Sequence record: OR352956.1
DNA length: 64,000 nucleotides
Source of the DNA: Escherichia phage AV126
Direction: 5' to 3' (one strand)
The notes under the pieces are model-generated. The model searched no databases. It was not told where the DNA came from and worked only from the letters and a program-made list of their open reading frames with translations. Shown here in pieces: positions 7,947 through 28,529 of the stretch. The translations under genes were made by a program, and so were the position numbers. Each line of letters starts with the position of its first letter. The stretch's first letter is position 1.

Positions 7947-8200
7947 TTTACTTCCCCTTTGTAATCGGACACTATACCAGGTCTTACTTTTGCCTTAAGA
8001 TGTTTCAACTCTGCCATAGGAGTTGCCACTTGTATAGGGTTAACTTCAACCTCGTAGATAGTATACTCATAACCCGCATACTTCCCGATGGAATGCAGGT
8101 ATTTGATAGCATGTTCAGGTGAATCTGCTTCAACATACCCCAAATCTTTTGTAGTGCGGCCTTCACAGTCGCCTTCTGTAGTTACGTGATAAAGTGTCAT
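7943..8200 (-). CDS. hypothetical protein (85 aa)
   Basis: ORF, coupled to neighbours. Confidence 0.5.
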   Translation of the reverse strand: MTLYHVTTEGDCEGRTTKDLGYVEADSPEHAIKYLHSIGKYAGYEYTIYEVEVNPIQVATPMAELKHLKAKVRPGIVSDYKGEVK

Positions 8201-9221: not shown

Positions 9222-9515
9222 ATGATGAACATTACTTTAGCAACTAAGAATATTTCTGAAACAATTAACGGTTTTGGTGTTATTGTAGCCTTGCACGGTA
9301 ACAACGAGAAATGGTTGGCTTCTTTTGAAGAGGATCGTCAACACAACATCATTTTAGACGCTCCTATAAAAGTTATGCATATACTTGGTGAAAACAAAGT
9401 GCTCACTTCCTCCCGTTCAAAGGAACAAATTACAAACGAATTAGTAAAACTGCTTGACAATGTTCTTAACATGTTTGATAATGCACCCATCGATACAAAA
9501 CGTGTCTTAATGTGA
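9222..9515 (+). CDS. hypothetical protein (97 aa)
   Basis: First gene of rightward block after divergent intergenic region. Confidence 0.5.
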   Translation: MMNITLATKNISETINGFGVIVALHGNNEKWLASFEEDRQHNIILDAPIKVMHILGENKVLTSSRSKEQITNELVKLLDNVLNMFDNAPIDTKRVLM

Positions 9516-9527
9516 GAGGAGAACAAA

Positions 9528-9815
9528 ATGTACTATTCACAAGACGAAGCAGCAAACATTAAACTGGCAGTGGGCGATCTTATTGTGTCACCTAACTACC
9601 ATTGGGATAACACAGACTTGGTTGAAGTAGTAACCCATGTTGGAGTTGAAGGTATTGTGCTCTACACACTAGGTGGAGGTGTTGTTGGGGAAATGGAACG
9701 TTATACAACGACCAAGAAACTGGTAAGCTCTTATCGCATGTTTTTACACCAAGGTTCTGAAGAGTATACAGCTTTCTTGTCGAAATTAGATGCAGATCGG
9801 GAGAATGCACGATGA
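9528..9815 (+). CDS. hypothetical protein (95 aa)
   Basis: ATG preceded by GAGAGGA. Confidence 0.5.
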   Translation: MYYSQDEAANIKLAVGDLIVSPNYHWDNTDLVEVVTHVGVEGIVLYTLGGGVVGEMERYTTTKKLVSSYRMFLHQGSEEYTAFLSKLDADRENAR

Positions 9816-14727: not shown

Positions 14728-14907
14728 ATGGCACGTTTAGCAGATCATGAAATCTTTAAACCTATTCTGAACCACTATGATGAACTTAAAGCAGTGTTGG
14801 ATTGTTATAGAGAGGATGAAGAACGTTTGGAAGTCAATCTTAAGATAGTTCTGATGAAAGCTTTTCAAGACGGGCAAGCTAAAGTTTTAGAAGGCATGAA
14901 AAAATGA
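14728..14907 (+). CDS. hypothetical protein (59 aa)
   Basis: ATG at 14728 after AAGGAGAAA. Confidence 0.45.
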   Translation: MARLADHEIFKPILNHYDELKAVLDCYREDEERLEVNLKIVLMKAFQDGQAKVLEGMKK

Positions 14908-15446
14908 GAATAACTGATGAATATGTATTCTTCTTTTCACATAAAGATGTGTTTAGTAATTGGTATATTGCACCCTTTACAGAAACTGAACTAGGTTACA
15001 ATGAGACTTTCTGTTGTGTTGAGCAATATATGATGTGGCGTAAGGCTTTGCTGTTCAAGGATCATGCGATTGCAGCAGCTATCCTTGATCACTCAACTAT
15101 ACGTGACAACGAGAGGAAACAAGCATACTACAAACGTATGGGTCGAGCGGTATCTGGTTTTAATAATGATATGTGGGAAGAGAACCGTGAGCGTATTGTT
15201 ATGCGAGGCTTATGCTTGAAATATGTACAGAATCCAGATTTGTATGCAGACTTACACCTTTACCAATACAAAACGTTTGTTGAAGCAAGCCCCTACGATA
15301 AGGTTTACGGAATTGGAATGGGGATGTATGAACCAGGGGTGCTAAACCCTGCTACCTGGAAAGGGCAGAATCTTTTAGGCAAATATCATAATAAACTGAT
15401 CGAAATACTTTTCCCAGACAAAATACCGCAAAGACGATATTTGTGA
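14904..15446 (+). CDS. NADAR-domain protein (YbiA/DUF1768-like, 180 aa)
   Basis: FFFSHKDVFSNWY..., CVEQYMMWRKALLF, RMGRAV and C-terminal EASPYDKVYGIGMG match the NADAR pattern. Confidence 0.7.
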   Translation: MRITDEYVFFFSHKDVFSNWYIAPFTETELGYNETFCCVEQYMMWRKALLFKDHAIAAAILDHSTIRDNERKQAYYKRMGRAVSGFNNDMWEENRERIVMRGLCLKYVQNPDLYADLHLYQYKTFVEASPYDKVYGIGMGMYEPGVLNPATWKGQNLLGKYHNKLIEILFPDKIPQRRYL

Positions 15447-15537: not shown

Positions 15538-15670
15538 TCCTATACAAACCCTTGTCTTTTTCAGTTTGCATCACTAGGATTCGATCTGAGTGGGTTCCTG
15601 AAGGTCTGCCAATAAGATTAAAGGTTATCTCAAATTCCCACTACCTATTATCTCAAAAATCCCTCAAATT

Positions 15671-15737
15671 ATTTAAACTTTTTAAGAATTTACAAAAGTG
15701 AAAGTTGAAAACCAAAATTTAAAGTTTAGGAAAAATT
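15671..15737. repeat. ~67-bp AT-rich direct repeat, copy 1
   Basis: ATTTAAACTTTTTAAGAATTTACAAAAGTGAAAGTTGAAAACCAAAATTTAAAGTTTAGGAAAAATT; about 80% identical to copy at 15809-15875. Confidence 0.7.
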
Positions 15738-15808
15738 ATCTTAGAATGTTAGATACAAACAAAACTCAAAAGTCAAGGAAAATTTTAAAAATTTTGCGCG
15801 CCCACAGT

Positions 15809-15875
15809 ATTTAAAGTTTTTTTGCTTTTACAAAAATGAAAGTACAAAAGCAAAATTTAAAGTTTACAAAAATTT
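15809..15875. repeat. ~67-bp AT-rich direct repeat, copy 2
   Basis: ATTTAAAGTTTTTTTGCTTTTACAAAAATGAAAGTACAAAAGCAAAATTTAAAGTTTACAAAAATTT. Confidence 0.7.
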
Positions 15876-15908
15876 ATGCAGGTGGGAATGAGAAGAGTTC
15901 TCATGTGG

Positions 15909-15935
15909 AAATGCAAATGATAATGATTCGCATTT
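15909..15935. promoter_or_regulatory. Fur-box-like palindromic operator
   Basis: AAATGCAAATGATAATGATTCGCATTT; core TGATAATgATTcgCA matches the 7-1-7 Fur consensus TGATAATnATTATCA at 12/14. Confidence 0.45.
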
Positions 15936-15951
15936 AAGTTTATAAACGAGA

Positions 15952-15993
15952 TTGATTCTTATTCAATAAGGTAAATGATAATCATTCTCATTT
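15952..15993 (+). promoter_or_regulatory. sigma70-like promoter overlapped by Fur-box-like operator
   Basis: TTGATT -35, 17-nt spacer, ATGATA/GATAAT -10 region; operator AAATGATAATCATTCTCATTT (13/14 to 7-1-7 Fur consensus) overlaps the -10. Confidence 0.5.
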
Positions 15994-16221
15994 AGAGAAT
16001 GACGCGCAGGGGCGGTGTTTGTCTCGCGCTCCCGTGTCCCCTCGCCATGTAATAAGAATAACAGATCCAACCAGGAAAGCAAGCGATTATTTTATCTTTA
16101 CATTTCTTTACAAATATATAGCGCCCAGCCTACCGGCGATCAACCTTCCAACCAGCGCCCCTGGTATGTTAGCCCCGCCTTTACGCCGTGGGGTGGCGCT
16201 TCCTCTTCTGTATGTAAAACA

Positions 16222-16262
16222 GTATAAGCCCGATCCCTGGGCTTGTCAAGATTATTTTTTGT
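16222..16262. terminator. hairpin plus T-run (possible bidirectional terminator)
   Basis: AAGCCCGATCCCTGGGCTT then GTCAAGATTATTTTTTGTTTTC; just beyond stop of minus ORF 16252..16518; minus sense also reads TTGACA-17-TATACT. Confidence 0.4.
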
Positions 16263-16518
16263 TTTCTTGCCAGGATAGGACACCTAACCAAAAATGCATA
16301 TCGCCCCGCGCCGCTGGCGGGATCTTGCTTTCCCCGCCGCCACTGCAAGCCCATAAATAACCATCAGCAAACGGATCAAAATGTTCTATCTCTTCCACTT
16401 TATGATCGCCCAGGTTGAGAACGGTTTCAACCTTTAAGCCCGTTGCGCTTGCTACCTGGTGCACCGTGCCGCCTTGCCAGCCCAATGAGTGCATAAGGTG
16501 TAATGTAGTATTTGTCAT
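16252..16518 (-). CDS. hypothetical protein (88 aa) in GC-rich island
   Basis: Only minus-strand ORF in the plus-oriented region; GC-rich codon usage unlike flanks; GGCGATACC upstream of ATG. Confidence 0.45.
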   Translation of the reverse strand: MTNTTLHLMHSLGWQGGTVHQVASATGLKVETVLNLGDHKVEEIEHFDPFADGYLWACSGGGESKIPPAARGDMHFWLGVLSWQENKK

Positions 16519-16626: not shown

Positions 16627-16686
16627 TTGACGTTAACCAGGCGGCGGCGTAGTATTCATCTTATAGGGCGGCAATGGTGCCGCTCA
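16627..16686 (+). promoter_or_regulatory. PeSL-like cassette 1
   Basis: TTGACG / TAGTAT / hairpin GGGCGGCAATGGTGCCGCTC; ORF at 16705. Confidence 0.55.
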
Positions 16687-16908: not shown

Positions 16909-16968
16909 TTGACAACAAACAACAACCTGATAAGATGTATCACATAGGGCGGGAAGTGGTTTCCCGCT
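16909..16968 (+). promoter_or_regulatory. PeSL-like cassette 2
   Basis: TTGACA / TGaTAAGAT / hairpin GGGCGGGAAGTGGTTTCCCGC; ORF at 16993. Confidence 0.65.
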
Positions 16969-26983: not shown

Positions 26984-27012
26984 AAGGGGCGCACCAAGCG
27001 CCCTTTCTTTTT
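26984..27012 (+). terminator. rho-independent terminator
   Basis: AAGGGGCGCACCAAGCGCCCTTT + CTTTTTG; ends the PeSL island. Confidence 0.8.
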
Positions 27013-27218
27013 GCCTGAACAATGTTGATAGCTTTCGCCTATGAAAAACCGACACAGAACAAAACTGAATAAATCGCGGTATCGAGCTAATCAACCATCA
27101 AACGAATAACCATACATCCCAGGGCAACAGGCTGTTAGAGAGCTATTTAGAGCGGTTAAAATCGATCTACAACCAACAACAAACCATCAAAAACACCCTT
27201 TTACCTCCTTTCTAGTGC

Positions 27219-27237
27219 AATGATAACCATTATCATC
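27219..27237. promoter_or_regulatory. Fur-box-like palindrome
   Basis: AATGATAACCATTATCATC; 13/14 match to TGATAATnATTATCA. Confidence 0.5.
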
Positions 27238-27580
27238 TACCCATGATTATCTATGCAATATAAGCGCATAATTATAATGTTGATAATAGTTCGCAACAAC
27301 TAACCAACAAACAACATAAAACAATAAGCAAACTAATCATAATCAAAGGAATAATAGCAAGATGATTGATAACGACAAACAATCAAACCATGATGAATAC
27401 TAAGCAAGATAACGATAACACGACAAAACAACCAACTAACGAACAATAACAAACGAAACCATTAAAAGATCAACTATTAGCAAAATAGTGTCTATTGCCA
27501 TAATAGTGACTGAATGAAATCATTACAAAACGAATCATTCCAAGGATCATCATTAGCACGCTACGCCGGACACGTAGCGA

Positions 27581-27708
27581 GCTAATAATAAGCCAACTAC
27601 ACCCCAACAATCATAACCATCGGTGACGGTTATTTCTTGTTACTGCGTAGCTTGCAATAATTGCAAGCGTAATGACGCTTACACTTATTGCGCTGGCTTA
27701 TTATTAGC
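27581..27708. repeat. 14-bp perfect inverted repeat pair flanking ~100 bp rich in palindromes
   Basis: GCTAATAATAAGCC at 27581-27594 and its reverse complement GGCTTATTATTAGC at 27695-27708; internal palindrome CTTGCAATAATTGCAAG (27651-27668); adjacent hairpin GCTACGCCGGACACGTAGC. Confidence 0.55.
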
Positions 27709-27990
27709 ATTATATGTAATTACCAAGATCATAACATTAGCGCAATAACAATAATCATTACAATAATTACATAAGGAAACAATTAGCATAGCAATAATTA
27801 TGGGGGCAATGGGAGGATGATTATCATCATTCCGATACATTGCACACTATGCACATAATAAGATAAAAAGCAATAATCTTGGGGGCGAAATGTTACCGCC
27901 ACAGGCGGGAATGTTGAGCATCTTCTCTTAAACGTAAATAAAATCAGAAAATTCTTGATTTATTTTAGTTTTTATGTTAATAAACGTTTA

Positions 27991-28008
27991 AATAATAATC
28001 ATTCTCAT
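27991..28008. promoter_or_regulatory. Fur-box-like site
   Basis: AATAATAATCATTCTCAT; shares the 14-mer ATAATCATTCTCAT with the site at 15973-15993. Confidence 0.45.
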
Positions 28009-28148
28009 ATAAATAATAGTCTGCTTGTCATGAGCGGGATTAGTTGACATTGTTCCGTCATATGATGAAGTTGCCAAGCCATTGATAAATAAGTGTTTGT
28101 GTGATTTATAATCAAGTGGCCCACCTTGTCGCTACGTTGGCATGAGCC

Positions 28149-28190
28149 TTGCATAAGTCATTGAATACGAATGATAATTATTCTCATTCG
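28149..28190 (+). promoter_or_regulatory. sigma70-like promoter overlapped by Fur-box-like palindrome
   Basis: TTGCAT -35, ~18-nt spacer, GATAAT -10; 21-bp near-palindrome GAATGATAATTATTCTCATTC (13/14 to 7-1-7 Fur consensus) over the -10. Confidence 0.5.
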
Positions 28191-28529
28191 CATGATATTT
28201 GGGAATTGTCGCTGCGTGGACCTGACGGCCCGAAAATTCGCGTTAAGCACTTCTTACGTATGCGCCATGATTTTTGCCATATCATATTGATTCTATTAGA
28301 TATTCTTGCCATGATTGCCATGAAACAGGGTGTCCCGAAATAATCTCTCCCCGTAGATATTTTGGGTTACTTTTTATACAAGAGTGGGGTGTCAAAAATA
28401 ATCGGTATATATGGGATAATTGATAGGAATCCCCTATGATAATTCGATTGTAATTCCCTAAGATTGATCGTATGATGTTGGTGATTGATGATTGCCATGA
28501 AAGATGGCTAACGATGAGAGGAGATTATC

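Follow-up and report, generated by a model that had tools for sequence, protein, structure and literature searches.

A stretch of 64,000 nucleotides from Escherichia phage AV126 (OR352956.1), here called the window, carries beside a GC-rich island two palindromes that resemble the binding site of the host metalloregulator Fur. An original prediction, made from the sequence alone, had described them as Fur-box-like operators over a promoter. Over 15600-16400, the sequence shares 98% identity with Escherichia phage phAPEC8, and 146 related records match it there; because of this identity, the window is regarded as part of a virulent myovirus of about 150 kb belonging to the genus Phapecoctavirus (Stephanstirmvirinae). 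A window position equals the phAPEC8 position minus 127,048.

Organization of the Locus

Both palindromes were found where they had been placed, at 15909-15935 and 15973-15993 on the left edge of the GC-rich island. They belong to an array of four units that spans about 110 bp with a period of 29 bp and adjoins a conserved GC-rich non-coding element (Table 1). Box A, the second unit, consists of direct hexamer repeats (AATGAT AATGAT), and the third, degenerate unit is represented in the congener anhysbys by GAGAATGATTCTTATTTA, which scores 11.5 bits. The inverted repeat overlapping box C includes a GAAT that is invariant in an alignment of 21 loci, compiled from GenBank relatives and twelve IMG/VR contigs that were found via a conserved 31-mer. 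GCGC occurs twice in the bases after box C (16003-16030).

The AT-rich spacer to the left of the array contains motifs of the A-tract and AAAGTGAAA types. Other genera exhibit A/T-tract repeats of different sequence at the equivalent place, and in T5-like phages AAAAAGTGAAATG repeats are located between the boxes.

Table 1. Features of the array, the adjoining island and the right genome end in the window.
Feature	Coordinates	Strand	Remarks
AT-rich spacer left of the array	15665..15877		pair of 75-nt direct repeats at a distance of 138 bp (81% identity)
Array unit 1, weak Fur-like box GGGAATGAGAAGAGTTCTC	15884..15902		11.0 bits; first of four units spaced by 29 bp
Array unit 2 (box A) AAATGCAAATGATAATGATTCGCATTTAA	15909..15937		two overlapping Fur sites 6 bp apart
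Array unit 3, degenerate box	15945..15966		8.7 bits (15948-15966); holds the proposed TTGATT -35
Array unit 4 (box C, proximal) GTAAATGATAATCATTCTCATTTAG	15971..15995		18.6 bits, and 10.7 bits at +6; adjoins the conserved element
Inverted repeat TCATTCTC-ATTTA-GAGAATGA	15983..16003		overlaps box C; terminator-like on the minus strand
Conserved GC-rich non-coding element	15996..16213	minus	left half of the island; predicted product of the minus-strand promoter
Sigma-70 promoter TTGACA-17-TATACT	16249..16221	minus	11/12 match; GC hairpin in spacer
88-aa open reading frame	16252..16518	minus	right half of the island; phrog_19316, function unassigned, E 1.8e-58
Further Fur-like boxes	27216-27234, 27696-27714		15.2 and 14.0 bits; non-coding last kilobase before the right end
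Counterpart of 329-bp direct terminal repeat (physical ends)	27917..28245		from alignment with Schickermooser

Similarity to Fur Binding Sites

Scores were calculated with a palindromic, 19-bp Fur matrix derived from 14 Fur-regulated promoter regions of Escherichia coli MG1655 (fhuA, fepA-fes, fepD-entS, fepB-entC, fur, gpmA, fiu, fhuE, tonB, cirA, exbB, ryhB, fecI, and fhuF) and are given in bits relative to the base composition of the phage itself. The sites picked by the matrix agree with the fhuA, ryhB, tonB and cirA boxes of the literature. In a leave-one-out procedure, the 14 genuine sites scored from 4.4 to 20.0 bits with a median of 13.8, and genuine MG1655 sites match the 19-bp consensus GATAATGATAATCATTATC at 11-17 of 19 positions.

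As had been claimed, the first palindrome matches the 7-1-7 consensus TGATAATnATTATCA at 12 and the second at 13 of 14 positions. Compared with the 19-bp consensus, the site at 15971-15989 shows 16 matches, for which an expectation of 0.02 was obtained from shuffles of the window, and a hand count for 15913-15931 yields 14. The former is the top-ranked Fur-matrix site of the whole 64-kb window (18.6 bits) and the latter ranks third (15.9 bits), so that both exceed the median of the genuine sites; the overlapping second site of box A (15919-15937) scores 13.8 bits. Both palindromes lie far above shuffled AT-rich sequence, the comparison by which the prediction was to be judged. Six sites of at least 14 bits are present in the window versus 0.33 expected from its dinucleotide shuffles, and two are present in 15600-16000 versus 0.005 expected from dinucleotide shuffles of this local stretch of 27% GC, whose observed maximum was reached in none of 2000 local shuffles. 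Chance or AT-richness as the origin of the boxes is ruled out by the whole-window and local shuffles taken together. Capture of host DNA was likewise rejected, as the region shows no similarity to any complete E. coli genome. Separate Fur-matrix sites at 45.8-46.0 kb are located inside coding sequence and were set aside as probable chance matches.

When compared with consensus strings for PerR and Zur, the palindromes match the Fur core at 12-13 of 14 positions versus 10-11 for PerR and 7-9 for Zur; for the box with 13 Fur matches, the individual PerR and Zur boxes give 11, 9 and 7. The strong sites are moreover paired at an offset of 6 bp (15913/15919, 15971/15977, and 28167/28173), and sites that overlap at an offset of 3 or 6 bp are described as characteristic of clustered Fur sites (Chen et al., 2007; PMC2189734). 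The phage boxes share with the boxes and clusters of E. coli, such as those of fhuA, ryhB and fhuF (PMC2189734), the 19-bp consensus, the 7-1-7 core, the 6-bp overlaps and scores within or above the validated range, and their ATTCTC and GCAAAT hexamer variants are those of the fhuA, ryhB, tonB and cirA sites. By their sequence, the palindromes are confirmed as Fur boxes far beyond chance. Fur would very probably bind them in vitro, and the chance that Fur binding is the selected function of the boxes appears somewhat better than even.

Conservation Among rV5-Like Myoviruses

At the edge of the element, right beside the GAAT that never varies, 19 of the 21 loci have a box that reaches at least 11.7 bits and usually 14-21 bits (p < 0.001 each). 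This junction box occurs in six genera, namely Phapecoctavirus, Justusliebigvirus, Mydovirus, Seunavirus, Certrevirus and Vequintavirus. The two exceptions are a recombinant without the left flank and tuntematon, in which the proximal box has decayed and four strong boxes lie upstream. In distant genera, homology starts exactly at the proximal box (query position 124-125). The number of boxes per locus ranges from one in Seunavirus to five in Justusliebigvirus PaulScherrer (19.0, 18.5, 15.1, 20.9, and 11.6 bits), and FFH2 exhibits two box-plus-GC-hairpin units in tandem. Box number therefore turns over with the array being kept, a behavior typical of protein-binding sites.

Several records designated "Campylobacter phage" (e.g., MG065650 B15, and A145) show 91-97% identity to phAPEC8-like and Justusliebigvirus genomes of E. 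coli phages. Such records are probably mislabelled or contaminant.

Promoters and Direction of Transcription

The original prediction also held that the second box overlaps the -10 of a TTGATT-N17 promoter in the classic layout of Fur-repressed promoters. This part of it failed. A spacer of 17 nt from TTGATT (15952-15957) leads to ATGATA, which is not a -10, GATAAT would need a spacer of 19 nt, and a consensus scan reports no plus-strand promoter there. The boxes do not overlap a -35 or -10, and the proposed TTGATT instead falls within the degenerate third box. Conservation of this hexamer is lacking even among congeners, since the position reads ATGATT in anhysbys and tuntematon. All 21 aligned loci were scanned for promoters, and no plus-strand promoter was found over the boxes at a conserved position.

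It is accordingly very unlikely that the boxes represent a classical Fur operator over a rightward sigma-70 promoter driving the GC-rich island. Such a promoter is suggested by the Vequintavirinae, where the proximal box starts with TTGAAT, a deviation from the palindrome toward a -35, and where the invariant GAAT follows 18-20 nt downstream. However, the candidate -10 (nnGAAT) varies at its essential second position (A, T or G), the window has GTAAAT instead of TTGAAT, and in none of the 21 loci does a plus-strand promoter at that column pass the scan. The TTGAAT-18-nnGAAT arrangement was thus ruled out on the grounds of -10 quality and conservation.

On the minus strand, the promoter at 16249..16221 is located 225 bp to the right of the boxes, is aimed at them and has a counterpart in 21 of 21 loci. 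From locus to locus the hexamers differ as promoter rules allow (TTGACG and TTGCAA; TATATT, TATAGT and CATAAT), and the spacer of the promoter is free to vary in sequence and constant in length at 17-18 nt. Hexamers that vary by rule around a spacer of fixed length are the signature of a real promoter. Subsets of the 21 loci exhibit additional minus-strand promoters closer to the boxes. As transcription from the conserved promoter would run leftward toward the array, the array is situated downstream of transcription and not at a site of initiation. To its left there are no minus-strand open reading frames (ORFs), and the plus-strand operon ends at about 15540 with a terminator. The array apparently lies in a convergent, untranslated zone.

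An intrinsic terminator would have a GC-rich stem immediately before a U tract; at 16003..15981, the minus strand offers only an AU-rich stem of nine pairs with a U tail that is broken. It could be argued that RNA hairpins end or stabilise the leftward transcript without any protein, as this stem and its U-rich tail were flagged as terminator-like and GC hairpins precede the boxes in both the rV5-like and the T5-like phages. This explanation has hardly any probability: uncompensated mismatches interrupt the stems, which are AU-rich, box A is built as a direct repeat, the Fur core sequence itself is conserved beyond what pairing would require, and arrays also occur where no transcript is predicted. 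No U runs follow the GC hairpins upstream of the boxes.

The last gene of the upstream operon (14904-15446, plus strand) codes for a NADAR/YbiA-like protein (PF08719, E 3.9e-35). It is possibly relevant to ADP-ribosylation-based defence and unconnected to the Fur boxes. To the right of the array, the motif ATAGGGCGG occurs at 16658-16674 and 16939-16955, in each case just downstream of a strong rightward promoter-like site (16627-16655 and 16909-16936). The first copy coincides with a PHIRE-predicted promoter annotated in phAPEC8, and a similar motif, TATAGGGAGGGCGG, is found in the T5-like untranslated region (1761-1795 of that locus).

The GC-Rich Island

The non-coding element shows 70-76% identity across the Stephanstirmvirinae and Vequintavirinae, and 354 records match the stretch 15850-16300 that contains it. 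Its indels are not multiples of three and its ORF calls differ in strand between records. In Alifold analyses, the aligned element surpasses column shuffles (z about -4.1 on the minus and about -3.5 on the plus strand), and one clear compensatory pair, 16150:16167, was identified. Counts of G·U versus A·C pairs were considered for assigning the strand and discarded as circular and uninformative, the shared pairs being almost all Watson-Crick. Searches of Rfam 15 returned nothing relevant in the window (E up to 10) and no match in six diverse loci (E up to 1), and no E. coli homology of the element was found. A structured RNA is plausible and no more, since the alignment folds better than its shuffles and single-sequence folding is unremarkable. 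The element is viewed as a candidate phage non-coding RNA or, as the other candidate, as a leftward promoter cluster that serves no gene.

As for the right half of the island, minus-strand annotations of the 88-aa ORF are found in the records of anhysbys, tuntematon, PaulScherrer and KP13-26. The gp009 ORF of phAPEC8 (window 16019-16360, plus strand) overlaps both the non-coding element and this minus-strand ORF. No Pfam or PHROG match was obtained for plus-strand gp009, and the opposite strand is annotated in other records. gp009 is probably a spurious gene call, which would correct the annotation.

Boxes at the Right Genome End

The prefix and suffix of the Schickermooser genome are identical for exactly 329 bp, and this sequence maps to window positions 27917-28245 at 97.9% identity. 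A terminal repeat of 328 bp was reported for Schickermooser (Korf et al.; PMC6563267), and about 28245 is where a number of GenBank records from this genus have their first or last base. With the physical ends located in 27917-28245, the window spans the junction of the right and left ends. Features annotated as "repeat_region" in anhysbys and tuntematon were considered as terminal repeats and rejected; they are merely local repeats. The distance from the 15.9-kb array to the right physical end amounts to 12.3 kb (8.2%) in the window; for Schickermooser, the corresponding value is 14.0 kb (9.3%).

The terminal repeat itself contains Fur-like boxes at 27988-28006 and 28167-28191 (13.0, 15.4 and 17.8 bits), the strongest pair of which (28167/28173) is situated 54-78 bp from the right physical end. 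Together with the two boxes preceding the repeat, which are kept in Schickermooser, they form a second cluster (27216, 27696, 27988, and 28167/28173) within a non-coding region of 1.5 kb, in which a number of GenBank records come to their end. The stretch 27020-27900, just inside the right end and after a clean terminator at about 26985-27010, comprises roughly 0.9 kb without ORFs. Its plus strand is rich in A and C (AT skew +0.22, GC skew -0.16) and includes motifs such as caaccaacaacaaacc. The stretch may be the counterpart of a box shown as "non-coding" for rV5.

Strong sites in several copies per genome, in untranslated stretches away from mapped promoters, might also be taken as a Fur decoy. 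Replicated arrays, amounting to hundreds of copies, would then titrate Fur without regulation in cis, and derepression of host iron uptake, RyhB and nrdHIEF would feed phage nucleotide synthesis. Turnover of box number with retention of the array fits such a role, and the FURTA assay of Stojiljkovic from 1994 reportedly relies on multicopy Fur boxes that titrate Fur. A sponge would nonetheless have no need of the precise position beside the GC-rich element, Fur is very abundant, and in T5 derepression of host genes cannot be the purpose because T5 degrades the host DNA within minutes. The decoy explanation is therefore considered improbable.

Boxes in the T5 Injection-Stop Region

Many T5-like siphoviruses contain short, strong matches to the array, which are situated near 9.5 kb and thus within the left terminal repeat; box A is identical to them (100% over 31 nt). 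In T5, the matrix identifies boxes at 9470, 9574/9580 (15.3 and 17.2 bits) and 9615/9621 (19.4 and 11.2 bits). Annotated at these positions are copies of DRC (direct repeat C) and palindromes E, G, H and I, all part of "Repeat Region 3"; the boxes lie on both sides of the 7.9% shear point, as calculated, and border on major nick 1. In the T5 record (AY587007), the major 7.9% nick is annotated in GC palindrome J (9645-9668), immediately past the final Fur-like box. VAH1 has its boxes in an array that adjoins DnaA boxes and DRD-type repeats. The Vibrio T5-like phage River4 exhibits no array and instead a single box of 19.7 bits in a non-coding stretch just after dmp. This box contains the 19-mer GATAATGATAACCGTTCTC (8038-8056), which is identical to the second box of FFH2 (1334-1352), and in both phages a GC-rich stretch occurs within about 20 nt after it; this suggests that the 19-mer and the GC stretch are a small mobile or convergently kept unit. 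A further Fur-like pair of T5 (228-252; 15.8 and 14.6 bits) lies about 230 bp from the left end in the 3' part of dmp and may be due to chance or may represent a terminus-proximal box like that of the Phapecoctavirus terminal repeat.

In a 2020 analysis of the T5 injection-stop signal, DnaA boxes were invoked and the palindromes left unexplained (Davison; bioRxiv 10.1101/866236), and a 2026 T5 preprint (bioRxiv) goes no further than calling the signal "rich in repeats and palindromes." Fur is mentioned in neither of the two, and a search of a literature library, full texts included, brought up neither Fur boxes of lytic phages nor any described for the T5 signal. The fur gene was not found in a genome-wide host-factor screen.

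The window array shares with Repeat Region 3 the same palindromes (repeats of the DRC and palindrome E-I type), the large untranslated and repeat-rich surroundings, a GC palindrome beside the boxes and a location at about 8% from a genome end. The two regions differ in that the T5 boxes reside in a terminal repeat of 10 kb, whereas that of the window measures 329 bp. T5 also carries paired DnaA boxes (IRD'-spacer-IRC') and DRD repeats beside its boxes, which the window lacks: TTWTNCACA matches it five times versus about ten expected, with none near 15.9 or 27-28 kb. Moreover, DNA transfer in T5 is dependent on A1 and A2, of which the window has no homologue.

These likenesses give rise to the view that the array is a DNA-entry or genome-end signal, with or without Fur, and as such corresponds in the myoviruses to the injection-stop region of T5. 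In this case it would delimit a terminal segment that is the first to enter or to act, or would help to protect the ends or to package the genome, and would be read by Fur, by another host protein or by a virion protein. In support of this, the T5 boxes of up to 19.4 bits straddle the shear point, the array lies at a similar relative distance from the right physical end with further boxes close to that end in the terminal repeat, and the genes between array and right end are small ORFs transcribed endward, like the leftward first-step genes of T5 (dmp, A1, A2), with River4 carrying its box just after dmp. On the other hand, neither DnaA-box pairs nor a 10-kb terminal repeat are present, A1 and A2 homologues are absent from the window and from the right-hand 14 kb of Schickermooser, and two-step entry is not known for these myoviruses. 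Coincidence could account for the 8% agreement, and either end might be the first to enter. Overall, an entry or end signal is deemed rather unlikely.

The Probable Reader of the Boxes

Neither the rV5-like nor the T5-like phages encode a Fur homologue, and a phage-encoded Fur was consequently rejected as the binder. A shared pre-early protein such as T5 A2 was rejected as well, as it has no counterpart in the window: tblastn searches with 17 T5 pre-early proteins yielded no match in the window or in the right-hand 14 kb of Schickermooser, and among the matches listed, all A2 homologues are in records of T5-like genome size. All hosts are Enterobacterales, in which Fur specificity is conserved. 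The likeliest reader would be a host factor, most simply Fur, because two unrelated lineages of Enterobacterales phages share a motif equal to the host Fur box without a phage-encoded Fur or a common pre-early protein.

The boxes might also belong to another protein, for example a phage initiator acting on iterons, with the Fur likeness being incidental. Four dyad repeats at a spacing of 29 bp, located beside a 27%-GC repeat region suited to unwinding and with transcription directed at them, form a layout that resembles the lambda origin. Against a phage-specific initiator stand the identical boxes in unrelated T5-like phages with no shared pre-early protein, and a coincidental identity at 13 of 14 Fur-core positions is improbable (0.02 expected). 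Furthermore, no cognate initiator came to light, T5 origins map near the genome centre, and boxes also occur singly and in the terminal repeat. An explanation of this kind is thus improbable.

Fur as a Putative Boundary Protein

The reading that we prefer, with a probability that falls a little short of even, is that the array comprises four host-Fur sites that would act as a protein-DNA barrier or boundary and not as a promoter operator. In this model, iron-loaded Fur dimers, which are abundant in the host, would coat the array once the DNA is inside the cell. The array would stand at the end of the region's only leftward transcription unit, which runs from the promoter at 16249..16221 through the GC-rich element, and bound Fur would stop RNA polymerase arriving from the right and thereby set the 3' end of the non-coding transcript, since no canonical terminator is present there. 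The barrier might in addition limit the spread of silencing proteins from the AT-rich DNA. In an iron-starved cell, metal-free Fur would leave the DNA and the barrier would open, so that leftward transcription would continue into the spacer and, in antisense orientation, across the genes upstream. Control would accordingly act on read-through and not on initiation. A barrier that would end leftward transcription and insulate the units on either side is favored because of the convergent untranslated zone, the conserved promoter aimed at the array, the lack of a canonical terminator and the AT-rich, bent DNA beyond it.

A partial parallel is provided by ftnA, where several Fur sites are located off the promoter in AT-rich DNA and form a barrier to another protein. 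Nandal and colleagues are said to have found in 2010 that Fur acts there from non-promoter sites by displacing H-NS. For the phage array, by comparison, the link to H-NS is an analogy only.

Several points weigh against a Fur barrier. Fur occupancy, the transcript and its 3' end are predictions from the sequence. The matrix was seeded with the consensus and is mildly biased toward consensus-like sites, and single-sequence folding of the element gives z values of only -1.3 and -0.8. The classical mode of Fur action is promoter occlusion, and we know of no well-known precedent for roadblock termination by Fur. Iron-dependent read-through would confer no benefit that can readily be named. That the host DNA is gone within minutes in T5 and that the arrays occur at the pause in DNA transfer hints at a role in entry and not in transcription. 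Most Fur clusters are placed over promoters (Chen et al., 2007; PMC2189734). The phage array also departs from the operators of E. coli in that it does not cover a -35 or -10, is located in convergent non-coding DNA with a period of 29 bp as well as in the terminal repeat, and has no iron-related gene nearby.

Implications for Lytic Enterobacterial Phages

The promoter of stx1 in a temperate phage carries a Fur box. On temperate-phage DNA, Fur boxes are also found at sitABCD of lambdoid phages (PMC6969025), and nohA, ynaE and ydfK are prophage genes with such a box (PMC2189734). These are, like the array described here, host Fur sites on phage DNA; in contrast, they are single promoter operators that bring an accessory (moron) gene under iron control, whereas the present arrays are free of cargo and belong to obligately lytic phages. 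Up to now, the promoters of cargo genes in temperate phages have been the only known setting of Fur boxes on phage DNA; here, near-consensus Fur sites form conserved arrays in untranslated, non-promoter DNA of obligately lytic phages.

The nature of the T5 injection-stop signal is a question of decades' standing. One far-reaching proposal is that host Fur, and not DnaA or DNA structure alone, reads the injection-stop region of T5-like phages, that the rV5/phAPEC8-like phages carry a homologous Fur-array boundary together with terminal-repeat boxes, and that in both groups these sites stage entry or partition a first-acting segment. This proposal is speculative and its truth improbable. Were it true, the timing of infection could follow the iron state of the host, and two unrelated lineages of large virulent enterobacterial phages would exploit an abundant host metalloregulator.

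Should Fur not bind, the arrays would still constitute a conserved cis element common to two unrelated phage families. If it does bind, it would provide the first concrete and cheaply testable host-factor hypothesis for the T5 injection-stop region, and a virulent phage would be seen to wire the global metal sensor of its host into the architecture of its genome.

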